The notes beneath the pieces were generated by a model. It was not told the DNA's origin and did not search any database. It saw only the letters and a program-made list of their open reading frames with translations. A program made the position numbers and the translations under genes. Positions 2,982-34,200 of a stretch of DNA of 35,428 nucleotides are shown here, in pieces. The stretch comes from an uncultured Gammaproteobacteria bacterium (lineage in GTDB: Bacteria > Patescibacteriota > Patescibacteriia > UBA2591 > CAZVCF01), in contig CAZVCF010000002.1 in NCBI GenBank assembly GCA_964626355.1, positions 7,184 through 42,611 on the forward strand. Direction: 5' to 3'. How positions within the stretch are numbered: the stretch's first letter is position 1; every line of letters begins with the position of its first letter.

Positions 2982-3136
2982 AAATCCGAAATCCGAAACA
3001 CGAAATCCGAAACAAATTCAAATGTTCAAAATCCAAAATTAAAAACAAAAATAAAATTCGGTTCCAAAATTGTTTTGGTCATTAGAATTTTGAATTTAGA
3101 TATTGTTTCGGATTTCGTGCTTCGAATTTCGGATTT
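2982..3136. repeat. Inverted repeat: 34-nt arms (2982..3015 / 3103..3136) around an 87-nt spacer containing the core TTTTGGTCATTAGAATTTTG
   Basis: AAATCCGAAATCCGAAACACGAAATCCGAAACAA versus rc of TTGTTTCGGATTTCGTGCTTCGAATTTCGGATTT: 32 of 34 match. Both mismatches are G-U compatible on the minus (transcribed) strand. Lies between the ctpA stop and the alr start. Confidence 0.75.
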
Positions 3137-9231: not shown

Positions 9232-9290
9232 TAAGAAATAAATTCAATAGAAAACTCTCACTATTTTTCACTTTTGTTTTTTAATTTTAG

Positions 9291-9334
9291 ATTTTGAATT
9301 GTCATTTTGATTTTTGCATTTTGATTTTTGATTT
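9291..9334 (-). repeat. Family A spacer repeat, solo arm
   Basis: ATTTTGAATTGTCATTTTGATTTTTGCATTTTGATTTTTGATTT is the rc of the AAAATCAAAATGCAAAAATCAAAATGACAAT-type consensus. Confidence 0.7.
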
Positions 9335-10229: not shown

Positions 10230-10296
10230 AAAATGTAAAATGTAAATATCAAAAATCAAAATGACAATGCAAAATTTAAAAATGAATTTAAGAAAA
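10230..10296 (+). repeat. Family A arm plus decayed 5' stub of a four-helix-bundle gene
   Basis: AAAATGTAAAATGTAAATATCAAAAATCAAAATGACAATGCAAAATTTAAAAATGAATTTAAGAAAA. Starts directly after the TAA stop at 10227-10229. Confidence 0.8.
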
Positions 10297-10449
10297 AACC
10301 ATTAATCCAAAACACACAATTTTCCAATTCAATTGTGAACCATCGACCCTGTAATGTCGAACCGTCGAGATAGAACAAACGGAAACAAATCTTAAACCTA
10401 AGATTCAAAATTGGAAATTAAATCTCTGAGTCACTTCGAAATTATAAAA

Positions 10450-10488
10450 TTTTTGCATTTTACATTGTCATTTTGATTTTTGATTTTT
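10450..10488 (-). repeat. Family A arm, inverted partner of 10230..10296
   Basis: TTTTTGCATTTTACATTGTCATTTTGATTTTTGATTTTT. Its rc contains ATCAAAAATCAAAATGACAATG, identical to the left arm. Confidence 0.8.
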
Positions 10489-10583
10489 AAACTTTTAATT
10501 TGAACTTTATTACGCACTGCGGTCGGCCGGTGTTCTCTATAAAATAAATCTATCTTAAAAAATTTTATACTTAAAACTAAATC

Positions 10584-16120: not shown

Positions 16121-16170
16121 AATGAAAAATGTAAATATCAAAGTGAAAAATGGCAATCTAAAATGGTAAA
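16121..16170 (+). repeat. Family A arm at the 3' side of four-helix-bundle gene 1
   Basis: AATGAAAAATGTAAATATCAAAGTGAAAAATGGCAATCTAAAATGGTAAA. Confidence 0.8.
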
Positions 16171-16171
16171 A

Positions 16172-16543
16172 TTATTTTTTGCCTTTTAAAGTGAGAATGC
16201 TGGACGCAAGAACATTGGCGATCTCTATCAATTCTTTAAGCAACCATCCTAACTCAATACGATCACCCTTATTGGTATCTCGCAATAAGGTTATCCACAT
16301 CTTAGATTCGTTCGATGATTTCAAAGCATGAGTAAAAAAGTTGATAAAGTCCTTTTTGGAACTTGCCGAATTGGCTTCAATATAATTAGCAAGAATACTT
16401 GTGCCACTTCTTAAAAGCTGTTTCCCGATTACTACGCAAACTGAATCTTTTGGCAATGCATCAATAAATTTTATCAGCCGAAGGACCCAATAATAAAGTC
16501 TTTTCTTGAATTCATTTTTAAATTTTGCATTGTCATTTTGCAT
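16172..16543 (-). CDS. Four-helix-bundle protein (23S rRNA intervening-sequence protein family), copy 1
   Basis: 123-aa ORF MQNDNAKFKNEFKKR...GKQLLRSGTSILANYIEANSASSKKDF..., the pattern I recognise for this family. 98 of 123 residues are identical to the ORF at 22032..22403 (hand count). Confidence 0.85.
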   Translation of the reverse strand: MQNDNAKFKNEFKKRLYYWVLRLIKFIDALPKDSVCVVIGKQLLRSGTSILANYIEANSASSKKDFINFFTHALKSSNESKMWITLLRDTNKGDRIELGWLLKELIEIANVLASSILTLKGKK

Positions 16544-16565
16544 TTTGATTTTTACATTTTAATAT
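16521..16565 (-). repeat. Family A arm covering the start of four-helix-bundle gene 1
   Basis: rc reads AAAATGTAAAAATCAAAATGCAAAATGACAATGCAAAATT. Matches 16126..16164 at 33 of 39 ungapped positions (hand alignment). Confidence 0.8.
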
Positions 16566-18467: not shown

Positions 18468-18516
18468 TTAAAAATGCAAAAATCAAAAATCAAAATGACA
18501 ATCTAAAATGCAAAAT
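18468..18516 (+). repeat. Family A solo arm just upstream of the lepA start
   Basis: TTAAAAATGCAAAAATCAAAAATCAAAATGACAATCTAAAATGCAAAAT. Confidence 0.75.
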
Positions 18517-18521
18517 TATTT

Positions 18522-18553
18522 ACATTCTAACATTCTGCAGAATGTTAGAATGT
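18522..18553. repeat. Perfect 32-bp palindrome
   Basis: ACATTCTAACATTCTG|CAGAATGTTAGAATGT, between the GT2 stop and the lepA start. Confidence 0.85.
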
Positions 18554-18617
18554 TCTTGTCTCTTATATCTTTCAACGTTTTTAAATTTTGTTTTGCCTTT
18601 TTGATTTTTAATTTTGA

Positions 18618-19640
18618 TCATTTGAATTTGTTTCGAATTTCGATATTCGAATTTCGAATTTTTTTAATAATATTATATGTTCGCCTAAAATTCAAATTTA
18701 AAAATGTCATTGCGTACAAAATAATTACTTTACATTTATTTAATGAATGAAAATAGCGCATACTTTTTCTAAAATACGCGCGCGCTTGCGCGCGCTTCCC
18801 CATCACCAATGTCGCACCGCCTCGCCAATAGAGTTCATCGCCAACGCGATGCTGCACATTTCGTTCTAACTCTCCTCTTGAGAGAGTAATCATTTTTTTT
18901 ACCTCCTCTGAAAGCGTATCATAAAATCGTATCGCGTATTCCGCGCATCGTTTTTCAACGTCAACAACATTTTTTGTGGTCACTTGTCCTTCCCAAAATC
19001 GCCAATAGCCGCACAACGCAGGCACGAAATAAAATTCGCCTCTTGTTGCAAGTTCAAGCCATGTCGGATAATCAACCAACGGTAATCCAACGCTCTTAAA
19101 TCCTCCTATGTGATCAAGCGCGCTCTTTCGCACCATAACTGTTTGGGAAGGGAGCGTGTTATATTTTAATAAGATATTGAGAATCGCTCCGATGGGCGAA
19201 TTATTCCCCCATTTATCCAAATCCTTGTTCTTCTTCGGAAAAATATCTAAAAGCTCCCCTTTTTCATCAACCGCGCCTGTTTGCCCGTACACGACAATTA
19301 TTTTCTCGTTTTCAAAAAATGGAATCTGTTTCTCCAATTTATCCGAAGGCCAAAAATCATCGCCTTCTAAAATGGCGATGATATCGCCTTTTGCCAATTT
19401 CAACGCTTTATTAAAATTATCCGGAATTTTTTCAACGCCTTGATTTTGCTGATAGATATACGTAATTCGCGCATCGCTATATGATTTCACTATTTCTCCT
19501 GTTTTGTCAGTTGACCCGTCATCAATAATAATCATTTCCCAATTCGCGTAGGTTTGACCGCGTACGCTTTCAACGCACTGCCGAATAAATCGTTCGTGAT
19601 TATAAGTGAGTGTTAATATGGATACAAGAGAACTTGACAT
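18618..19640 (-). CDS. Family 2 glycosyltransferase
   Basis: 340-aa ORF: VSILTLTYNHERFIRQCVESVRGQTYANWEMIIIDDGSTD and ..ILEGDDFW.. (DxD-like). The last ~15 codons are encoded by a CGAAATT-type repeat. TGA stop. Confidence 0.85.
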   Translation of the reverse strand: MSSSLVSILTLTYNHERFIRQCVESVRGQTYANWEMIIIDDGSTDKTGEIVKSYSDARITYIYQQNQGVEKIPDNFNKALKLAKGDIIAILEGDDFWPSDKLEKQIPFFENEKIIVVYGQTGAVDEKGELLDIFPKKNKDLDKWGNNSPIGAILNILLKYNTLPSQTVMVRKSALDHIGGFKSVGLPLVDYPTWLELATRGEFYFVPALCGYWRFWEGQVTTKNVVDVEKRCAEYAIRFYDTLSEEVKKMITLSRGELERNVQHRVGDELYWRGGATLVMGKRAQARAYFRKSMRYFHSLNKCKVIILYAMTFLNLNFRRTYNIIKKIRNSNIEIRNKFK

Positions 19641-20404: not shown

Positions 20405-20863
20405 TATTAAATAATGAAATACCTTATTCTGAACCATTTGCGAAAAAACGAAAAAACGTAGCGTTTTAACCAGAAACGCAACTGTTTGACGAGCGGAGCG
20501 AGGAGTTTTGCATTTCGTATCAGAGCTCAGAATTCAAACCAGGGTCAGATTGAGAAGCTAAAAAATGAGATGATTTCGAGGCGCGACTACGAAAGTGTGC
20601 CCCCAGCGGCACAGTGAGGAGGAGCAACGAAGAAAGCATCTCATTTTTTAGCTTCCCTACTGGGCGGGCGAATTCGGGTTATCTTCTGCGTTGCTCGTCG
20701 CTCACGTACCACACAGGGTACGTATCGCTTCTCACGCCTTGAAGATAACCCGAATTCGCTCCGCTCAATTGACTCTGGTTTGGATTCTGAGCTCCTAAAC
20801 GCGTTGCGTTTTTGAAGTTTTTGGAGCGTTCCGGTTCAGAATAAGGTATTTCGTTATTTAATA
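20405..20863. other. 459-bp GC-richer nested-palindrome element (candidate large structured ncRNA or foldback/MITE-like element)
   Basis: Four nested inverted-repeat pairs: A 20405..20435/20833..20863, B 20523..20554/20764..20794, C 20554..20572/20637..20655, D 20669..20686/20741..20758. Details in findings. Confidence 0.6.
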
Positions 20864-20868
20864 CCCCC

Positions 20869-21975
20869 CTATCGCTTCCCCACAATCTTCTGAATAAATG
20901 CTGTTATTTTTTCTTTGAATCGTTCCTTTGAAAATTTGAGCGCATGCGCGCGAATTTCAGCCGGATCATACTGTTCCCAATCGAACTTTCTCACTGCGTC
21001 CGCGAGCGCGCGCGGAGTCTGTTCATTAAAAAATTCTCCTGTTTTCCCTTCAATGATTGTCTCGATTGCGCCACCGGCGCGATACGCAATCACCGGACGT
21101 CCGACTGCCATCGCTTCAATAGCCGTAATGCCTAAATCTTCTATTTGCGGATAAATAAGCGCGCGGCAATGCCGCAGATATTCCCATTTTTTTTCGTCAG
21201 GAACAAACCCCAAAAATTCAACATCATAATCCGCCATCATACGCAAACGCGCGTCGCTTCCGACGCCGATAATCTTAAGCGGCAATCCGAGAATATTGAA
21301 CGCCTGTATTGCGATATCAATTTTCTTATATGGCTCAAGACGCGATATAATCAAATAATAATCCTTTATTTCTTCTTTATTCGCCGGCTCTATCGACGGA
21401 ATATCCGTTGGCGGATGAATAACTTCAGCGTTGCGCTGATAATATTTTTCAATTTTATCGCGCACGAAACGGGAGTTTGTCGCGAAATGCGTTGGTTTCT
21501 GCGCCGCGTTAAAATCCCATCGACGCAACCACGGAATAAAAGGATACGCGCCATAACGCGCAATTGATTTAGTATTTTTGATATAGTCTTTTGTCTCTTC
21601 CCACAGCCATCGGGTTGGCGTGTGAATATACGAAAGATGCGGTATATTCCCCGGCATTTTACTGCCTTTGACAAACGCAGCGGTGTCGGAAATCACGATA
21701 TCAAACTCACCGTCAATCAATTTGCGGTTTAATGATTCTGCGGCATACGGCATCAAGGGCAAATAATATTGATGATTTTTTTCCGCAAACGGCATTTTCT
21801 GCACGAACGATGAAATGATTTGATCTTTGTAGCGATTAAAAAACTGTTTCACGATTTCGTCGCGTTTCACTAAAACAAAAATCGTGGCGTCAGGCCACAA
21901 CTCAAGAAACGCTTCCAACACCTTTTCCGCTCCGCCGTACTGCGTGAGAAAATCATGAACAAGAGCAACGCGCAT
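20869..21975 (-). CDS. Family 4 (GT-B, RfaG-like) glycosyltransferase
   Basis: 368-aa ORF: MRVALVHDFLTQYGGAEKVLEAF N-terminus and C-terminal ..EDLGITAIEAMAVGRPVIAYRAGGAIETI.. (E-x7-E region). Confidence 0.85.
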   Translation of the reverse strand: MRVALVHDFLTQYGGAEKVLEAFLELWPDATIFVLVKRDEIVKQFFNRYKDQIISSFVQKMPFAEKNHQYYLPLMPYAAESLNRKLIDGEFDIVISDTAAFVKGSKMPGNIPHLSYIHTPTRWLWEETKDYIKNTKSIARYGAYPFIPWLRRWDFNAAQKPTHFATNSRFVRDKIEKYYQRNAEVIHPPTDIPSIEPANKEEIKDYYLIISRLEPYKKIDIAIQAFNILGLPLKIIGVGSDARLRMMADYDVEFLGFVPDEKKWEYLRHCRALIYPQIEDLGITAIEAMAVGRPVIAYRAGGAIETIIEGKTGEFFNEQTPRALADAVRKFDWEQYDPAEIRAHALKFSKERFKEKITAFIQKIVGKR

Positions 21976-21976
21976 A

Positions 21977-22030
21977 GAAAATGTAAAATGTAAATCTCAA
22001 AATGTAAAATGACAAAGAAAAAATGACAAA
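21977..22030 (+). repeat. Family A arm at the 3' side of four-helix-bundle gene 2
   Basis: GAAAATGTAAAATGTAAATCTCAAAATGTAAAATGACAAAGAAAAAATGACAAA. Starts 2 nt from the GT4 start codon. Confidence 0.8.
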
Positions 22031-22031
22031 A

Positions 22032-22403
22032 TTATCTTTTGCCTTTTAGAGTAAGTATACTTGAAGCAATGACATTCGCTATTTCAATCACTTCCTGCAA
22101 TAACCAACGCAATTCGTCTTGATTGCCCTTTTTCAGTTCTTTTAAAAGAGTAATCCAAACTTTTGATTCATTTGCTGATTTGAGCGCATGCGTAAAAAAA
22201 TTCGTGAAATCTTTTCGTGAACTTGCGGAATTTGCTTCAATATAATTTGCCAAAATACTTGTACCGCTTCGCAATAATTGTTTACCCATTACCTCACTTA
22301 CCGAATCCTTAGGCAACGCATCAATATATTTAATCAATCGCACAACGAAAGAATATACCCTTTTTTTGAATTCATCTTTAAATTTTGCATTGTCATTTTG
22401 CAT
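22032..22403 (-). CDS. Four-helix-bundle protein (23S rRNA intervening-sequence protein family), copy 2
   Basis: 123-aa ORF MQNDNAKFKDEFKKR...GKQLLRSGTSILANYIEANSASSRKDF.... Paralogue of 16172..16543. Confidence 0.85.
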   Translation of the reverse strand: MQNDNAKFKDEFKKRVYSFVVRLIKYIDALPKDSVSEVMGKQLLRSGTSILANYIEANSASSRKDFTNFFTHALKSANESKVWITLLKELKKGNQDELRWLLQEVIEIANVIASSILTLKGKR

Positions 22404-22425
22404 TTTGATTTTTGCATTTTACATT
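22380..22425 (-). repeat. Family A arm covering the start of four-helix-bundle gene 2
   Basis: rc of 22383..22425 matches 21980..22022 at 37 of 43 ungapped positions (hand alignment). Confidence 0.8.
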
Positions 22426-22480
22426 AACGTTTTAAAAAAATCTATCAACTATAACACATCTGTTTATATTCTGCACTATA

Positions 22481-23368
22481 TTACTTCCTAAACCAAAGAA
22501 GGAATGGACTTGCGATTGCGATTGAAGAGTACGTTCCGACCGCGATGCCGACTGCCATTGCCAAGACAAAATAAAATATCGGCGACGGACCAAAAAACAA
22601 CATCGCGAAAATCGCGAAGAGCGTTGTCAAGGTTGTATTGATTGTGCGCGTCAATGTTTCATTTAAACTAAAATTGACTACCTCCGGAAGCGTTTTCTTG
22701 GTATGCTTCATAATATTTTCTCGTATGCGATCGTAGACGATAATCGTATCGTTAATCGAATAACCGAGAACCAACAGCATCGCGACAATAAAAGTTGAAT
22801 CTAATTCAACGCGAGAGAAATGCCCGAGCAAAGACCAGAGCCCCGTCATAATAATCAAATCGTGAATCAACGCGATAATCGCTCCTGCGCTATAACGAAA
22901 CGGTTCGCGCCGCCCAATGATCCGCAATTTTTTAAACGCGATAGCAATATAAATAAAGATTACAAGAATAGCGAGAAATACCGATTTTTTCGCGTTATTT
23001 TTTAATTCAACGCCTATCACCGGCCCAATTGTTTCATAACGATTCTCCTGCGGTTTTCCTACTGTTTCAATAATTTTATTATGCTCTTCATCTGAAATTG
23101 CCTTTGTTTTGATAAGATATACTGCGTCCCCGATTGATTGCGCGACTGGAGCGCTGCCCGTAATCGTTTTTATTTTTTCCACGATGACTAATTCGGTGAT
23201 TGCTTCGCTTGTCGTAACATTTTTGAAATCAAACTCCATCAGCGCGCCGCCGGTGAAATCAAGTCCTGGCACAAGACCCCATTTCACAATACTAACAAAA
23301 GAAATAATAATCGCGCATGCGGAAAGCACAAGAAAAAATTTATTCAGTTTTAAAAAATTAATTTGCAT
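22481..23368 (-). CDS. secF: Protein translocase subunit SecF
   Basis: 295-aa ORF: ..LVPGLDFTGG.., ..LIHDLIIMTGLWSLLG.., ..LLVLGYSINDTIIVYDRIREN.. typical SecF TM core. Confidence 0.9.
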   Translation of the reverse strand: MQINFLKLNKFFLVLSACAIIISFVSIVKWGLVPGLDFTGGALMEFDFKNVTTSEAITELVIVEKIKTITGSAPVAQSIGDAVYLIKTKAISDEEHNKIIETVGKPQENRYETIGPVIGVELKNNAKKSVFLAILVIFIYIAIAFKKLRIIGRREPFRYSAGAIIALIHDLIIMTGLWSLLGHFSRVELDSTFIVAMLLVLGYSINDTIIVYDRIRENIMKHTKKTLPEVVNFSLNETLTRTINTTLTTLFAIFAMLFFGPSPIFYFVLAMAVGIAVGTYSSIAIASPFLLWFRK

Positions 23369-23427
23369 AAGTAGAAAATGGAATAGGGAATATATAAATT
23401 TTCAATTTTTGATTTCTAATTTTTATT

Positions 23428-23478
23428 AAATTTTGCATTTTGCATTGTCATTTTGATTTTTGCATTTTGATTTTTGAA
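23428..23478 (-). repeat. Family A solo arm filling the secD-secF spacer
   Basis: AAATTTTGCATTTTGCATTGTCATTTTGATTTTTGCATTTTGATTTTTGAA. Ends 2 nt from the secD stop. Confidence 0.8.
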
Positions 23479-23479
23479 T

Positions 23480-25093
23480 TTACTTGACGTACATCTTCTG
23501 CAAAAATACCCTTGTCACCGTGATCGCGGTAAACATACTGACGATGACACCGACTCCGAGCGTTAATCCGAAACCGCGCAAAAGACTGCTTCCAAAATAA
23601 TACAAAATCGCGCAGGTAATTAAGGTGGTCACATTACTGTCGCGAATCGCGGACCACGCGCGGTCAAATCCGAACTCAAGCGCCATCACGCGATCGCTTC
23701 CTTTGTTCATTTCTTCCTTCATTCGTTCAAAAATCAACACATTCGCGTCAACTGCCATGCCAAGTGAAATAATAAATCCAGCGATACCGGCAAGCGTCAT
23801 TGTCACACCAACAATTTTGAATAAGGCGATACTTAACACCAAATATATTATCAAACTAATTGACGCGACAATGCCTTTTGTACGATAAAACAAAATCATA
23901 AAAAGTATAATTGCCGCGATGCCAATGATGCCGGCTTTTATACTTTTATCAACCGCTTCTTTTCCCAATTGCGCGCCGATGGTATTCTGGCTGATTAATT
24001 TAATCGGAATCGGCAACGCGCCGGCGCTAAGCCGCTGAGCCAATAATTTCGCCTCTTGCACCGAAAAATCGCCGGTGATGACCGCTCGTCCGGAAGTAAT
24101 CGGTTCCTGCACACGCGGAACGCTAATCGCCGCGGAGTCCAAAAATATCGCTACCGGCTTATTCACATTTCGCGTGGTAATTTCACCGAACAATTTTGAT
24201 CCTTCTTCGTTAAACTCAAGCGAAACTTCCGGCTGTCCGGTACTTGGATTAAACGAAACGCCCGCGATCTTCAAATGCTTCCCGGAAAGTTGTGTATTTT
24301 TCCATGGATTCGCGCTTGCTTCCAATTTTTTTGTTTTGATTAAAACGTGCGACGCATTATATTCCTTTTGGTCTCCTTCTCCACGCTCGTCATTTTTCCT
24401 TACAATATGATAGCCGAACGGCGATTGAATCGGGTCTTTTGACATCTCGCCTTTTTGAAGCCGTATCACTTCATCCTCAAACGGCTGAACCATCATTCCT
24501 TTTCTAAACCATCCAAGTTCTCCGCTTTTCGATCCAGAGCCTGGATCTTCGCTATACTGTTTCGCCGCGACCTCAAAAGTTGTCTTTTTTTGTTCAATCT
24601 CATTGAGAATTCTATAGATACGTGCTTGCGCATTTTTATTATAGTCGTCTATTTCTTTCTGTTGATCCGATGACACCGTTGCTTTCTCGTCTTCTTCCTT
24701 GAATTCCAACACCGGCGTTTCGCCGATCATTTTTTTTGCGTCTTCTATATTTTTAATGCCGGGCAATTCAACGATGATACGCCATTCGTCCGCAGACTTA
24801 TTCGTGCGCACAATCGGCTCCGCAACACCAAAATAATTGATTCGCCGTTCGATTACATCGCGCGTTCCTTCAACCGCCTTTTCTCGTTCCGAAACAGGAA
24901 CATTCGCCGTGTCGGTTTGATAGACTAAATGCGATCCTCCTTGCAGATCGATTCCCAACGACAGATGACGATCGGTAAACCATTTTGCCATCGGCACCCA
25001 TTCAGGAACTTTCGGCAATGTAACAAGCGCCGCGGCTATCGCGACGACAATAATCAGCCAAAATAGATTATCAACCTTGTGTTTATTAAGCAT
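23480..25093 (-). CDS. secD: Protein translocase subunit SecD carrying an inserted parvulin-type PPIase domain
   Basis: 537-aa ORF: ..LGIDLQGGSHLVY.., ..AIFLDSAAISVPRVQEPITSGRAVITGDFSVQEAKLLAQRLSAGALP.., TM core ..LGMAVDANVLIFERMKEE... The insert spans about aa 145-256. Confidence 0.9.
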   Translation of the reverse strand: MLNKHKVDNLFWLIIVVAIAAALVTLPKVPEWVPMAKWFTDRHLSLGIDLQGGSHLVYQTDTANVPVSEREKAVEGTRDVIERRINYFGVAEPIVRTNKSADEWRIIVELPGIKNIEDAKKMIGETPVLEFKEEDEKATVSSDQQKEIDDYNKNAQARIYRILNEIEQKKTTFEVAAKQYSEDPGSGSKSGELGWFRKGMMVQPFEDEVIRLQKGEMSKDPIQSPFGYHIVRKNDERGEGDQKEYNASHVLIKTKKLEASANPWKNTQLSGKHLKIAGVSFNPSTGQPEVSLEFNEEGSKLFGEITTRNVNKPVAIFLDSAAISVPRVQEPITSGRAVITGDFSVQEAKLLAQRLSAGALPIPIKLISQNTIGAQLGKEAVDKSIKAGIIGIAAIILFMILFYRTKGIVASISLIIYLVLSIALFKIVGVTMTLAGIAGFIISLGMAVDANVLIFERMKEEMNKGSDRVMALEFGFDRAWSAIRDSNVTTLITCAILYYFGSSLLRGFGLTLGVGVIVSMFTAITVTRVFLQKMYVK

Positions 25094-25138
25094 AAGGATA
25101 GGAAATTAGCTTTTAGGGGATTAGAGAATTAGGAATAA
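25094..25138 (+). repeat. Family B repeat abutting the secD start codon
   Basis: AAGGATAGGAAATTAGCTTTTAGGGGATTAGAGAATTAGGAATAA. On the gene strand it gives AAGCTAATTTCCTATCC-TT-ATG, the same 17-mer found before the ATP-grasp ATG. Confidence 0.8.
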
Positions 25139-25206
25139 AAATGCGATTTTCATAGTACCAAAAATAAAAATCTCGTCAATCAAAAAATTCATCCTCGCAA
25201 TAGAAA

Positions 25207-25240
25207 ACCCCCGATGATTTTTCAAAAAATCATCGGGGGT
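25207..25240 (-). terminator. Rho-independent terminator after the hydratase/dehydrogenase fusion gene
   Basis: ACCCCCGATGATTTT...AAAATCATCGGGGGT (about 15-bp stem). On the minus strand it is followed by TTTTCTATT. Confidence 0.7.
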
Positions 25241-25252
25241 TATTTTAAAAAT

Positions 25253-32518: not shown

Positions 32519-32556
32519 CAAAATGGAAAAATCAAAATGGAAAATGACAAATCAAA
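32519..32556 (+). repeat. Family A arm (left member of a gene-less inverted pair)
   Basis: CAAAATGGAAAAATCAAAATGGAAAATGACAAATCAAA. Confidence 0.7.
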
Positions 32557-32595
32557 ATTCAAAAATATCAAAAGCAATATAAGAAATAATTTTAT

Positions 32596-32641
32596 ATTTT
32601 ACATTGTCATTTTTCATTTTGATTTTTTAATTTTACATTTT
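32596..32641 (-). repeat. Family A arm (right member of a gene-less inverted pair)
   Basis: ATTTTACATTGTCATTTTTCATTTTGATTTTTTAATTTTACATTTT. Ends 2 nt before the TGA stop of the sugar transferase. Confidence 0.7.
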
Positions 32642-34028: not shown

Positions 34029-34035
34029 AAAAAAT

Positions 34036-34078
34036 TTAAAAATCAAAATGTAAAAATCAAAATGACAATTTAAAATTT
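34036..34078 (+). repeat. Family A arm (left member of a gene-less inverted pair)
   Basis: TTAAAAATCAAAATGTAAAAATCAAAATGACAATTTAAAATTT, followed by AAAATTTTTAATGAATTTTT that resembles the four-helix-bundle gene 5' codons. Confidence 0.7.
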
Positions 34079-34149
34079 AAAATTTTTAATGAATTTTTAA
34101 TAACTCAATTTTTAATTTTGAATTAAAATTTAGGTTTTTTAAATTTATT

Positions 34150-34200
34150 TTTACATTTTGCATTGTCATTTTGATTTTTGATATTTACATTTTACATTTT
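34150..34200 (-). repeat. Family A arm (right member), abutting the asnS stop
   Basis: rc reads AAAATGTAAAATGTAAATATCAAAAATCAAAATGACAATGCAAAATGTAAA. Its first 46 nt are identical to 10230..10275. Confidence 0.85.

Follow-up and report, generated by a model that had tools for sequence, protein, structure and literature searches.

In the analyzed window, a stretch of 35,428 nt that corresponds to C2:7184-42611 of a 1.22-Mb assembly from an ultra-small bacterium of the Patescibacteria (166 contigs, 88% complete), the secF gene (22481..23368, minus strand, PF02355) and the downstream gene for a GT4-type glycosyltransferase (20869..21975, minus strand) are separated by 505 nt. The gap contains a cassette in which a four-helix-bundle gene (22032..22403, minus strand) is enclosed by two inverted arrays of heptads. 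The 5′ arm (22374..22425, minus strand, arm-profile E = 1e-10) is an array of AAAATGN units that reads AATGTAAAATGCAAAAATCAAAATGCAAAATGACAATGCAAAATTTAAAG on the gene strand, and its inner part codes for the first ~10 codons of the open reading frame (MQNDNAKFK). The 3′ arm (21978..22033, minus strand, arm-profile E = 2.5e-7) consists of inverted heptads (CATTTTN units when read along the gene strand) and runs from the stop codon of the ORF to 2 nt before the ATG of the GT4 gene. Over 43 nt (21980-22022 and 22383-22425) the inverted arms are complementary at 37 positions (86%), the same match that had been claimed in a sequence-only reading of the window. That reading also placed the cassette between the secF stop and the GT4 start, which is supported here by the PF02355 match of secF and by the similarity of the GT4 gene to its counterpart in related genomes (see below), and it put the arm 2 nt from the GT4 ATG (21973-21975), a distance that holds for the heptad array with its true start at 21978. 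A spacer of 55 nt (22426..22480) separates the secF stop from the outer edge of the 5′ arm; it resembles neither the arm family nor the second cassette of the window (copy 1, described below) and could be a remnant of an older insertion. A GC-richer gap of 459 bp downstream of the GT4 gene (20405-20863) belongs to neither of the two arm families of this genome.

The gene encodes a basic protein of 123 amino acids (P0001, pI 9.7) that scores 68.5 bits against PF05635 over the whole domain (cut-off 33.8) and 81.4 bits against TIGR02436 (cut-off 24). The proteins of this cassette and of copy 1 match PF05635 with E-values of 7e-19 and 2e-16, both above the cut-off, and TIGR02436 with E-values of 5e-23 and 1e-20. 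PF05635 is the 23S rRNA intervening-sequence protein (S23p) family and TIGR02436 describes a four-helix-bundle protein; the family with the PF05635-related fold forms pentamers and binds nucleic acid. Among solved structures, PDB 2rld is the closest (E = 2e-14). A profile search of the ORF product returned PF05635 alone, with no recognizable recombinase or transposase domain, and the defense and phage families of PADLOC and PHROGs gave no match for the ORF. Rfam had no match within 21900-22520. The ORF is under purifying selection (pN 0.12 against pS 0.85 in the comparison with copy 1).

The closest SecF proteins (47-50% identical) are encoded in the gene order secA-secD-secF-GT4-GT4, where the secF-GT4 junctions read TAA-ttt-ATG and TAA-tt-ATG and leave gaps of only 2-3 nt. 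In these relatives secF is followed by a Glycos_transf_1 gene, the orthologue of the GT4 gene in the window (46% identity over the full length). Since the nearest relatives keep the operon order with a 2-3-nt gap, the comparison identifies the cassette as an insertion into the secF-GT4 gap, in the same orientation as the operon and with an empty site at the level of the family. A metagenome scan with SecF found no relative, and the best SecF match among 5.8 billion proteins was only 50% identical, so that no close relative was recovered. The adjacent secD-secF gap (23369-23479) is also enlarged, to 111 nt against 4-15 nt in the relatives, and holds a solitary arm of the same type (23428..23480, minus strand). 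The secA-secD gap (25094-25252) measures 159 nt, compared with ~40 nt in the relatives, and contains no arm match.

The distribution of arms was determined with an iterated nucleotide profile (E ≤ 1e-3) and the reversed genome as control. A total of 237 arms of the AAAATGN type (type 1, profile consensus ATGCAAAATGTAAAAATCAAAATGCAAAATGACAATGCAAAATTTAAAAATTA) were identified in the genome and none in the reversed genome; within the window the arm core pattern occurs 14 times compared with 0.96 expected occurrences. The arm logo displays a sharp outer edge and 7-8 AAAATGN units. Only 8% of arm bases lie inside called genes although 78% of the genome is coding, and 169 of 879 intergenic gaps (~1/5, based on rough gene calls) hold an arm. 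The arms sit mostly between co-directional genes and abut start and stop codons at a median distance of 13 nt. They form 70 convergent pairs (104-444 bp) as opposed to 5 divergent pairs, and a further 97 arms are solitary. An intact gene is present in three of the 70 pairs, which are the three largest; two of these are in the window and one is located at C1:28869-29311. Direct repeats of 2-8 nt were not clearly above the permutation expectation at any offset in the 70 pairs, providing no sign of a target-site duplication. Elements of this family and of the second arm family described below cover 27.6 kb (2.3%) of the assembly.

Besides the two gene-bearing cassettes and the arm between secD and secF, the arm profile located several type-1 sites in the window: a family site at 9284-9329, a gene-less pair in which ~15 codons from the ORF start are preserved (10233..10497, plus strand), gene-less pairs of 119 nt (32519..32637) and 167 nt (34031..34197), and a solo arm (18469..18516, plus strand) that is followed by a hairpin, ATTCTAACATTCTGCAGAATGTTAGAAT (18524-18551), and then by an arm of the second type (18600-18660). 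The hairpin is a perfect 28-nt palindrome that belongs to the interior of subfamily A, and the palindrome-bearing interior of 18469-18660 was found again in six paired elements on other contigs. Two further sequences neighbor the arms elsewhere in the genome: the 7-periodic motif GAATTATGAAGTATGAACGATGCAA, directly outside some arm ends on several other contigs, and CCTAA-rich runs, which likewise abut the outer ends of some arms (example positions of motifs outside arms are C1:8950-8974, C15:220-248, and C71:3290-3317). Both may be further modules or repeat families.

The gene-less pairs carry the ends of the gene. Arms of the ORF-start type have the inner end ...ATGCAAAATTTAAAAATGAATT and arms of the ORF-end type the inner end ...AAAATGGTAAAATTATTTTTTGCC, which is the reverse complement of KGKK-stop. 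Of the 70 pairs, 40 combine both arm types, 2 have two start types, and none has two end types; the shortest pairs (115-123 nt) join the first codons of the ORF to its last. In each of four subfamilies, one interior with one deletion junction recurs at 2-6 separate loci. Within the subfamilies the interiors are more alike than the arms, which look like mosaics of heptad variants. Broken ORFs also occur among the copies of the family, and the gene-less copies display no preferred orientation (25 same, 25 opposite). Because the gene-less pairs retain the start and the end of the ORF, they are internal deletions, and the recurrence of the same deletion junctions at several loci shows that the gene-less forms were propagated, for which a function must be provided in trans. 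These sequence patterns indicate that the gene-less pairs are internal deletion derivatives that were themselves copied.

A second family of arms is present in the same genome. A PF05635 gene that is 37% identical to the cassette gene is flanked by inverted AAATCCG heptads (C119:41-403), and a profile of the AAATCCG arms identified 105 copies, with none in the control, that form 33 homotypic pairs; one gene-less pair of this family is located in the window (2983..3135). The genome thus contains >340 arms of both families. Arms of the two families are neighbors far less often than expected (9 heterotypic cases seen, 48 expected, P = 7e-16). Two families that coexist in one genome and rarely pair show that the arm type follows the gene type and not the host, and each arm family has its own cognate four-helix-bundle gene.

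The sequence-only reading had noted that the ORF shares 98 of 123 residues with the ORF of copy 1 (16172..16543, minus strand), a count that was reproduced, and had argued that the duplicated entity is the unit of gene plus arms. Copy 1 is an intact cassette of the same family (16121..16565, minus strand), identified by the arm profile and by alignment. When the complete cassettes were aligned, the similarity between copy 1 and the cassette between secF and GT4 (copy 2) started and stopped at the arm ends. The 5′ arm together with the first 15 codons is identical at 63 of 69 positions (91%), ORF codons 16-123 show 71% identity, the 3′ arm is identical at 44 of 58 positions (76%), and the 60 nt outside either end of the cassette are at background (45-49%). 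The similarity therefore extends beyond the ORF, and these boundaries, together with the finding that homologues elsewhere bring their own arms, uphold the part of the argument that treats gene and arms as a unit. The idea of a simple duplication of one such unit did not survive the comparison. Synonymous sites are saturated between the two ORFs (64 of 76 differ, pS 0.85; dN 0.13) while the 5′ arm and the initial 45 nt of coding sequence, which lie within the arm, are nearly identical (42 of 45 coding nt, P = 2e-4 against the divergence of the ORF itself). Nor are the arms private to the gene, given that they belong to a family of 237 members of which most have no gene. Gene-less arms and saturated ORFs with near-identical 5′ arms imply that arms and cargo have different histories. 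Copy 1 is as distant from copy 2 as it is from the genes in two other families of the order (dN 0.11-0.13), and these two genes from other families, which are close homologues of one another, have a dN/dS of 0.05.

A third intact cassette of this family (copy 3, C1:28869-29311) is much closer to copy 1, with 371 of 372 nt of the ORF identical and the single difference located in codon 2, inside the arm. Copies 1 and 3 show no difference in the ORF core, but both of their arms diverge in the outer heptads (including an indel of one unit), and the flanks are unrelated; the identity tract between these recent copies stops inside the arms. Based on the saturation of synonymous sites set against the near-identical 5′ arms, copies 1 and 2 are judged to be old, selected paralogues of a proliferating family with arms that are kept alike, rather than recent duplicates. 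The pattern in copies 1 and 3 and in the gene-less subfamilies would fit recombination or gene conversion through the arms, or a very fast turnover of the arms, and fits cut-and-paste movement less well. A plain segmental duplication of the gene and its flanks, with the arms as chance AT-rich symmetry, would account for two loci with the same layout 6 kb apart, but it conflicts with saturated synonymous sites next to near-identical arms, with 237 arms genome-wide against none in the control, and with the same layout at 75 loci of other phyla; it can be set aside almost completely.

Cassettes of the same build were found in other genomes. Eight relatives within the same order contain homologues (47-75% identical) with inverted arms of a sequence that varies between the genomes. 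An exact match to the 20-nt arm core occurs 200 times in this genome and 12-48 times in six relatives; most others lack it, although several families of the order have it in common. In one relative (G030, 92% complete) there are 21 arm cores and no detectable four-helix-bundle gene, which indicates that the dependence between arm and gene is not strict. A set of 75 foreign loci was collected from genome contigs, with representatives of Patescibacteria, Bacteroidota, Planctomycetota, Omnitrophota, Zixibacteria, Chloroflexota, Actinomycetota, and one archaeal bin. The flanks of these loci display a lag-7 autocorrelation of 0.45-0.48 compared with 0.24 inside the ORF, and partner flanks pair better with each other than with non-partner flanks (P = 6e-8). 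Furthermore, arm similarity rises with protein identity over the 75 loci (Mantel r = 0.54, p = 0.001). Homologues with 50-60% identity occur in Bacteroidota, Planctomycetota, Actinomycetota, Omnitrophota, Chloroflexota, and a bin labelled Methanophagales (an archaeon), at loci L063 (WSZT01000224.1), L052-L054, L066, L070, and L088. The presence of such distant homologues in many phyla, as binned, points to horizontal spread.

The orientation of the gene-bearing cassettes is not random. Among the foreign loci they are co-oriented with the upstream gene in 65 of 69 cases and with the downstream gene in 63 of 70 cases, and co-orientation with the neighbors is seen in 5/5 cases in this genome, in contrast to the even split (25:25) of the gene-less copies. 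The simplest reading of this bias would be that the gene depends on read-through transcription from the host and decays when it is not transcribed.

The minimum-free-energy fold of the cassette pairs the two arms, and the arm duplex has a predicted energy of -32.3 kcal/mol in the sense and -42.4 kcal/mol in the antisense direction. The more stable duplex is the antisense one in 43 of 62 elements of this genome and the sense one in 49 of the 75 foreign loci. Whole cassettes gave weak fold z-scores (-2.1 and -0.85), since the stem accounts for little of the 450-nt RNA. Pair-specific compensatory change in the arms was rejected: partner arms within this genome are less alike than non-partners (78.3% vs 82.3% complementary). 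G-U wobble pairs are not enriched on the sense strand of the gene (67 vs 108) or on the transcribed strand. Selection for an RNA stem is unproven, given that partner arms are not more complementary than non-partners, that G-U pairs show no enrichment on the sense strand, and that the strand preference is opposite here and elsewhere. The genome encodes RNase III, and a stem of about -30 kcal/mol could possibly be cut by it in the manner of an rRNA intervening sequence, a proposal that is likewise unproven.

These observations bear on the possibility that the arms are regulatory punctuation of the host (RNase III sites, terminators or attenuators, or outward promoters) with the protein as a host RNA-binding regulator, so that the repeats are kept by host selection. 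The location of the arms agrees with this: they lie almost only between genes that are mostly co-directional, they abut start and stop codons, several families of the order have the exact core in common, and the protein is under purifying selection. A consensus scan also identified three overlapping promoter-like matches (TTGTCA-N17-TACATT) in the 3′ arm (21980-22029, minus strand), directed at the GT4 start over a distance of 5-12 nt; as functional promoters they would yield a leaderless or near-leaderless transcript. A general role of the arms as outward promoters is not supported, as solo arms show no preference for gene starts (36 starts and 39 ends faced), which also speaks against punctuation in the wider sense. 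Relatives run the same operon with gaps of 2-3 nt and without arms, the copies decay (a series of deletions, 97 solo arms, and broken ORFs), the gene-less copies have random polarity, and pair-specific compensation is not seen. Moreover, two families that do not mix and have their own gene each are maintained in one genome, and the number of arms varies from 0 to 200 among relatives. Regulatory punctuation is therefore considered unlikely.

Movement by proteins encoded elsewhere in the genome offers two further explanations. The genome contains two Y1_Tnp genes of the IS200/RAYT type (C7:2204-2806 and C68:3041-3751), and inverted doublets that are abundant between genes, span 100-450 bp, and lack target duplications are what would be expected of REPIN-like elements moved by one of these transposases with the four-helix-bundle gene as passive cargo. 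A RAYT gene typically has its own REPs on either side, but neither Y1 gene has a heptad arm within 4 kb. The arms are long AT-rich heptad arrays and not short GC-rich palindromes, and the arm type tracks the type of four-helix-bundle gene both in this genome and across phyla. In addition, the gene-less copies keep the ends of the ORF, so that the gene is ancestral and not captured cargo. The resemblance to REP/REPIN-RAYT systems is thus confined to the abundant doublets without target duplications and to a protein partner of the single-copy type; the partner of the cassettes is a four-helix-bundle protein carried within the doublet, and transposition by a Y1 enzyme is a quite improbable origin of the arm pairs.

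The second explanation, that the protein is an Avd-type accessory protein of a diversity-generating retroelement and that the arms are moved or copied by reverse transcription, takes its appeal from the relationship between PF05635 and bAvd, which share a small basic four-helix-bundle fold, and from a single reverse transcriptase beside a bAvd-like gene in this genome. This reverse transcriptase (C55:5399-6723) occupies two overlapping frames, possibly as a result of a frameshift, next to a gene matching PF22296 (bAvd), and the locus is likely a diversity-generating retroelement that is separate from the cassettes. The cassette protein P0001 has no match to PF22296 at E ≤ 0.01, the contig of the window carries no reverse transcriptase, and the locus on C55 is the only one in the genome to serve >340 arms. 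A template/variable repeat pair was not seen, and the differences between copies 1 and 3 include none that are specific to adenine. A retroelement origin is accordingly rated as highly improbable, below that of the Y1 transposases.

The closest known counterparts of the cassettes are the ORF-bearing intervening sequences (IVSs) of 23S rRNA. The IVS in helix 45 of Coxiella burnetii is 428-444 nt long and carries an S23p ORF in its loop; its 28-bp terminal stem is cut by RNase III, and tandem heptamers precede the ATG (PMC4990558). ORF-bearing IVSs of Leptospira, Xanthomonas, and Brucella are named alongside it, and an old proposal that the IVS ORF serves mobility is recounted in the same paper (PMC4990558, also citing Ralph and McClelland 1993). 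The cassette is of nearly the same length (~446 nt) and has a single ORF of the same family (S23p/PF05635) in the loop, terminal inverted repeats that are able to form a long stem (43 nt, 86%, -32.3 kcal/mol sense), and tandem heptamers that run into the start codon (7-8 AAAATGN units here, the lag-7 signal in the 75 foreign loci). It differs in being located between protein genes of an operon and not in helix 25 or 45 of 23S rRNA, in belonging to a multi-copy family with many gene-less derivatives and solo arms, and in sharing the genome with a second cognate family. The cassette thus has every structural feature of an IVS except the defining location in rRNA. A 23S rRNA was not found in this assembly, and the three relatives with a 23S rRNA contain no cassette inside it. 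The literature searched contained no paper that links these proteins to heptad repeats outside rRNA and no description of such heptad repeats in Patescibacteria.

The family also shares features with insertion sequences and their miniature derivatives (MITEs) such as the Correia/NEMIS elements of Neisseria: terminal inverted repeats, intergenic sites, many short non-autonomous copies that arise by internal deletion from a copy with the gene, and amplification of subfamilies at several loci. Unlike these elements, the cassettes lack a target-site duplication and a transposase domain in their sole ORF, and their arms consist of heptad arrays in which the individual units vary.

Overall, the cassette in the secF-GT4 gap is a real insertion with clear limits and belongs, as an intact copy, to a family of IVS-type, heptad-armed cassettes, each built from a gene for a basic PF05635 four-helix-bundle protein between two inverted arrays of ~7 AAAATGN heptads; the mode of spread and the role of the protein are inferred. 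The family is probably one of small selfish cassettes built like the ORF-bearing IVSs of 23S rRNA. Under this proposal the protein, as a basic member of a family of pentameric rings, would recognize its own heptad arrays, and spread and homogenization would take place by recombination or gene conversion between arms and not by cut-and-paste transposition. The gene would have no promoter of its own and would survive only where read-through from the host transcribes it. Host RNase III could cut the arm stem of ~40-50 bp in the operon transcript as it does in rRNA intervening sequences. A bolder version, which we put forward as a rather doubtful extension, holds that the protein itself is the trans-acting factor of transposase-free mobile elements: the basic ring would read cognate 7-base units, promote pairing or gene conversion between arms, and so let cassettes with and without the gene spread into and among operon gaps, with 23S rRNA IVSs and unexplained 7-base arrays of other bacteria as special cases.

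The PF05635/TIGR02436 proteins are very widespread and, to our knowledge, have no assigned function outside diversity-generating retroelements, and where rRNA intervening sequences come from and how they move has been debated since about 1990 without an answer. For annotation, the repeats matter because they make up ~2% of this genome and occupy ~1/5 of its intergenic gaps, and such repeats break assemblies. With two arm families that have their own genes, ~100 gene-less derivatives, and an uninterrupted operon in relatives, this genome represents an unusually clean natural experiment, and it enables a specific and cheap question, namely whether each protein binds its own heptad array and not that of the other family.
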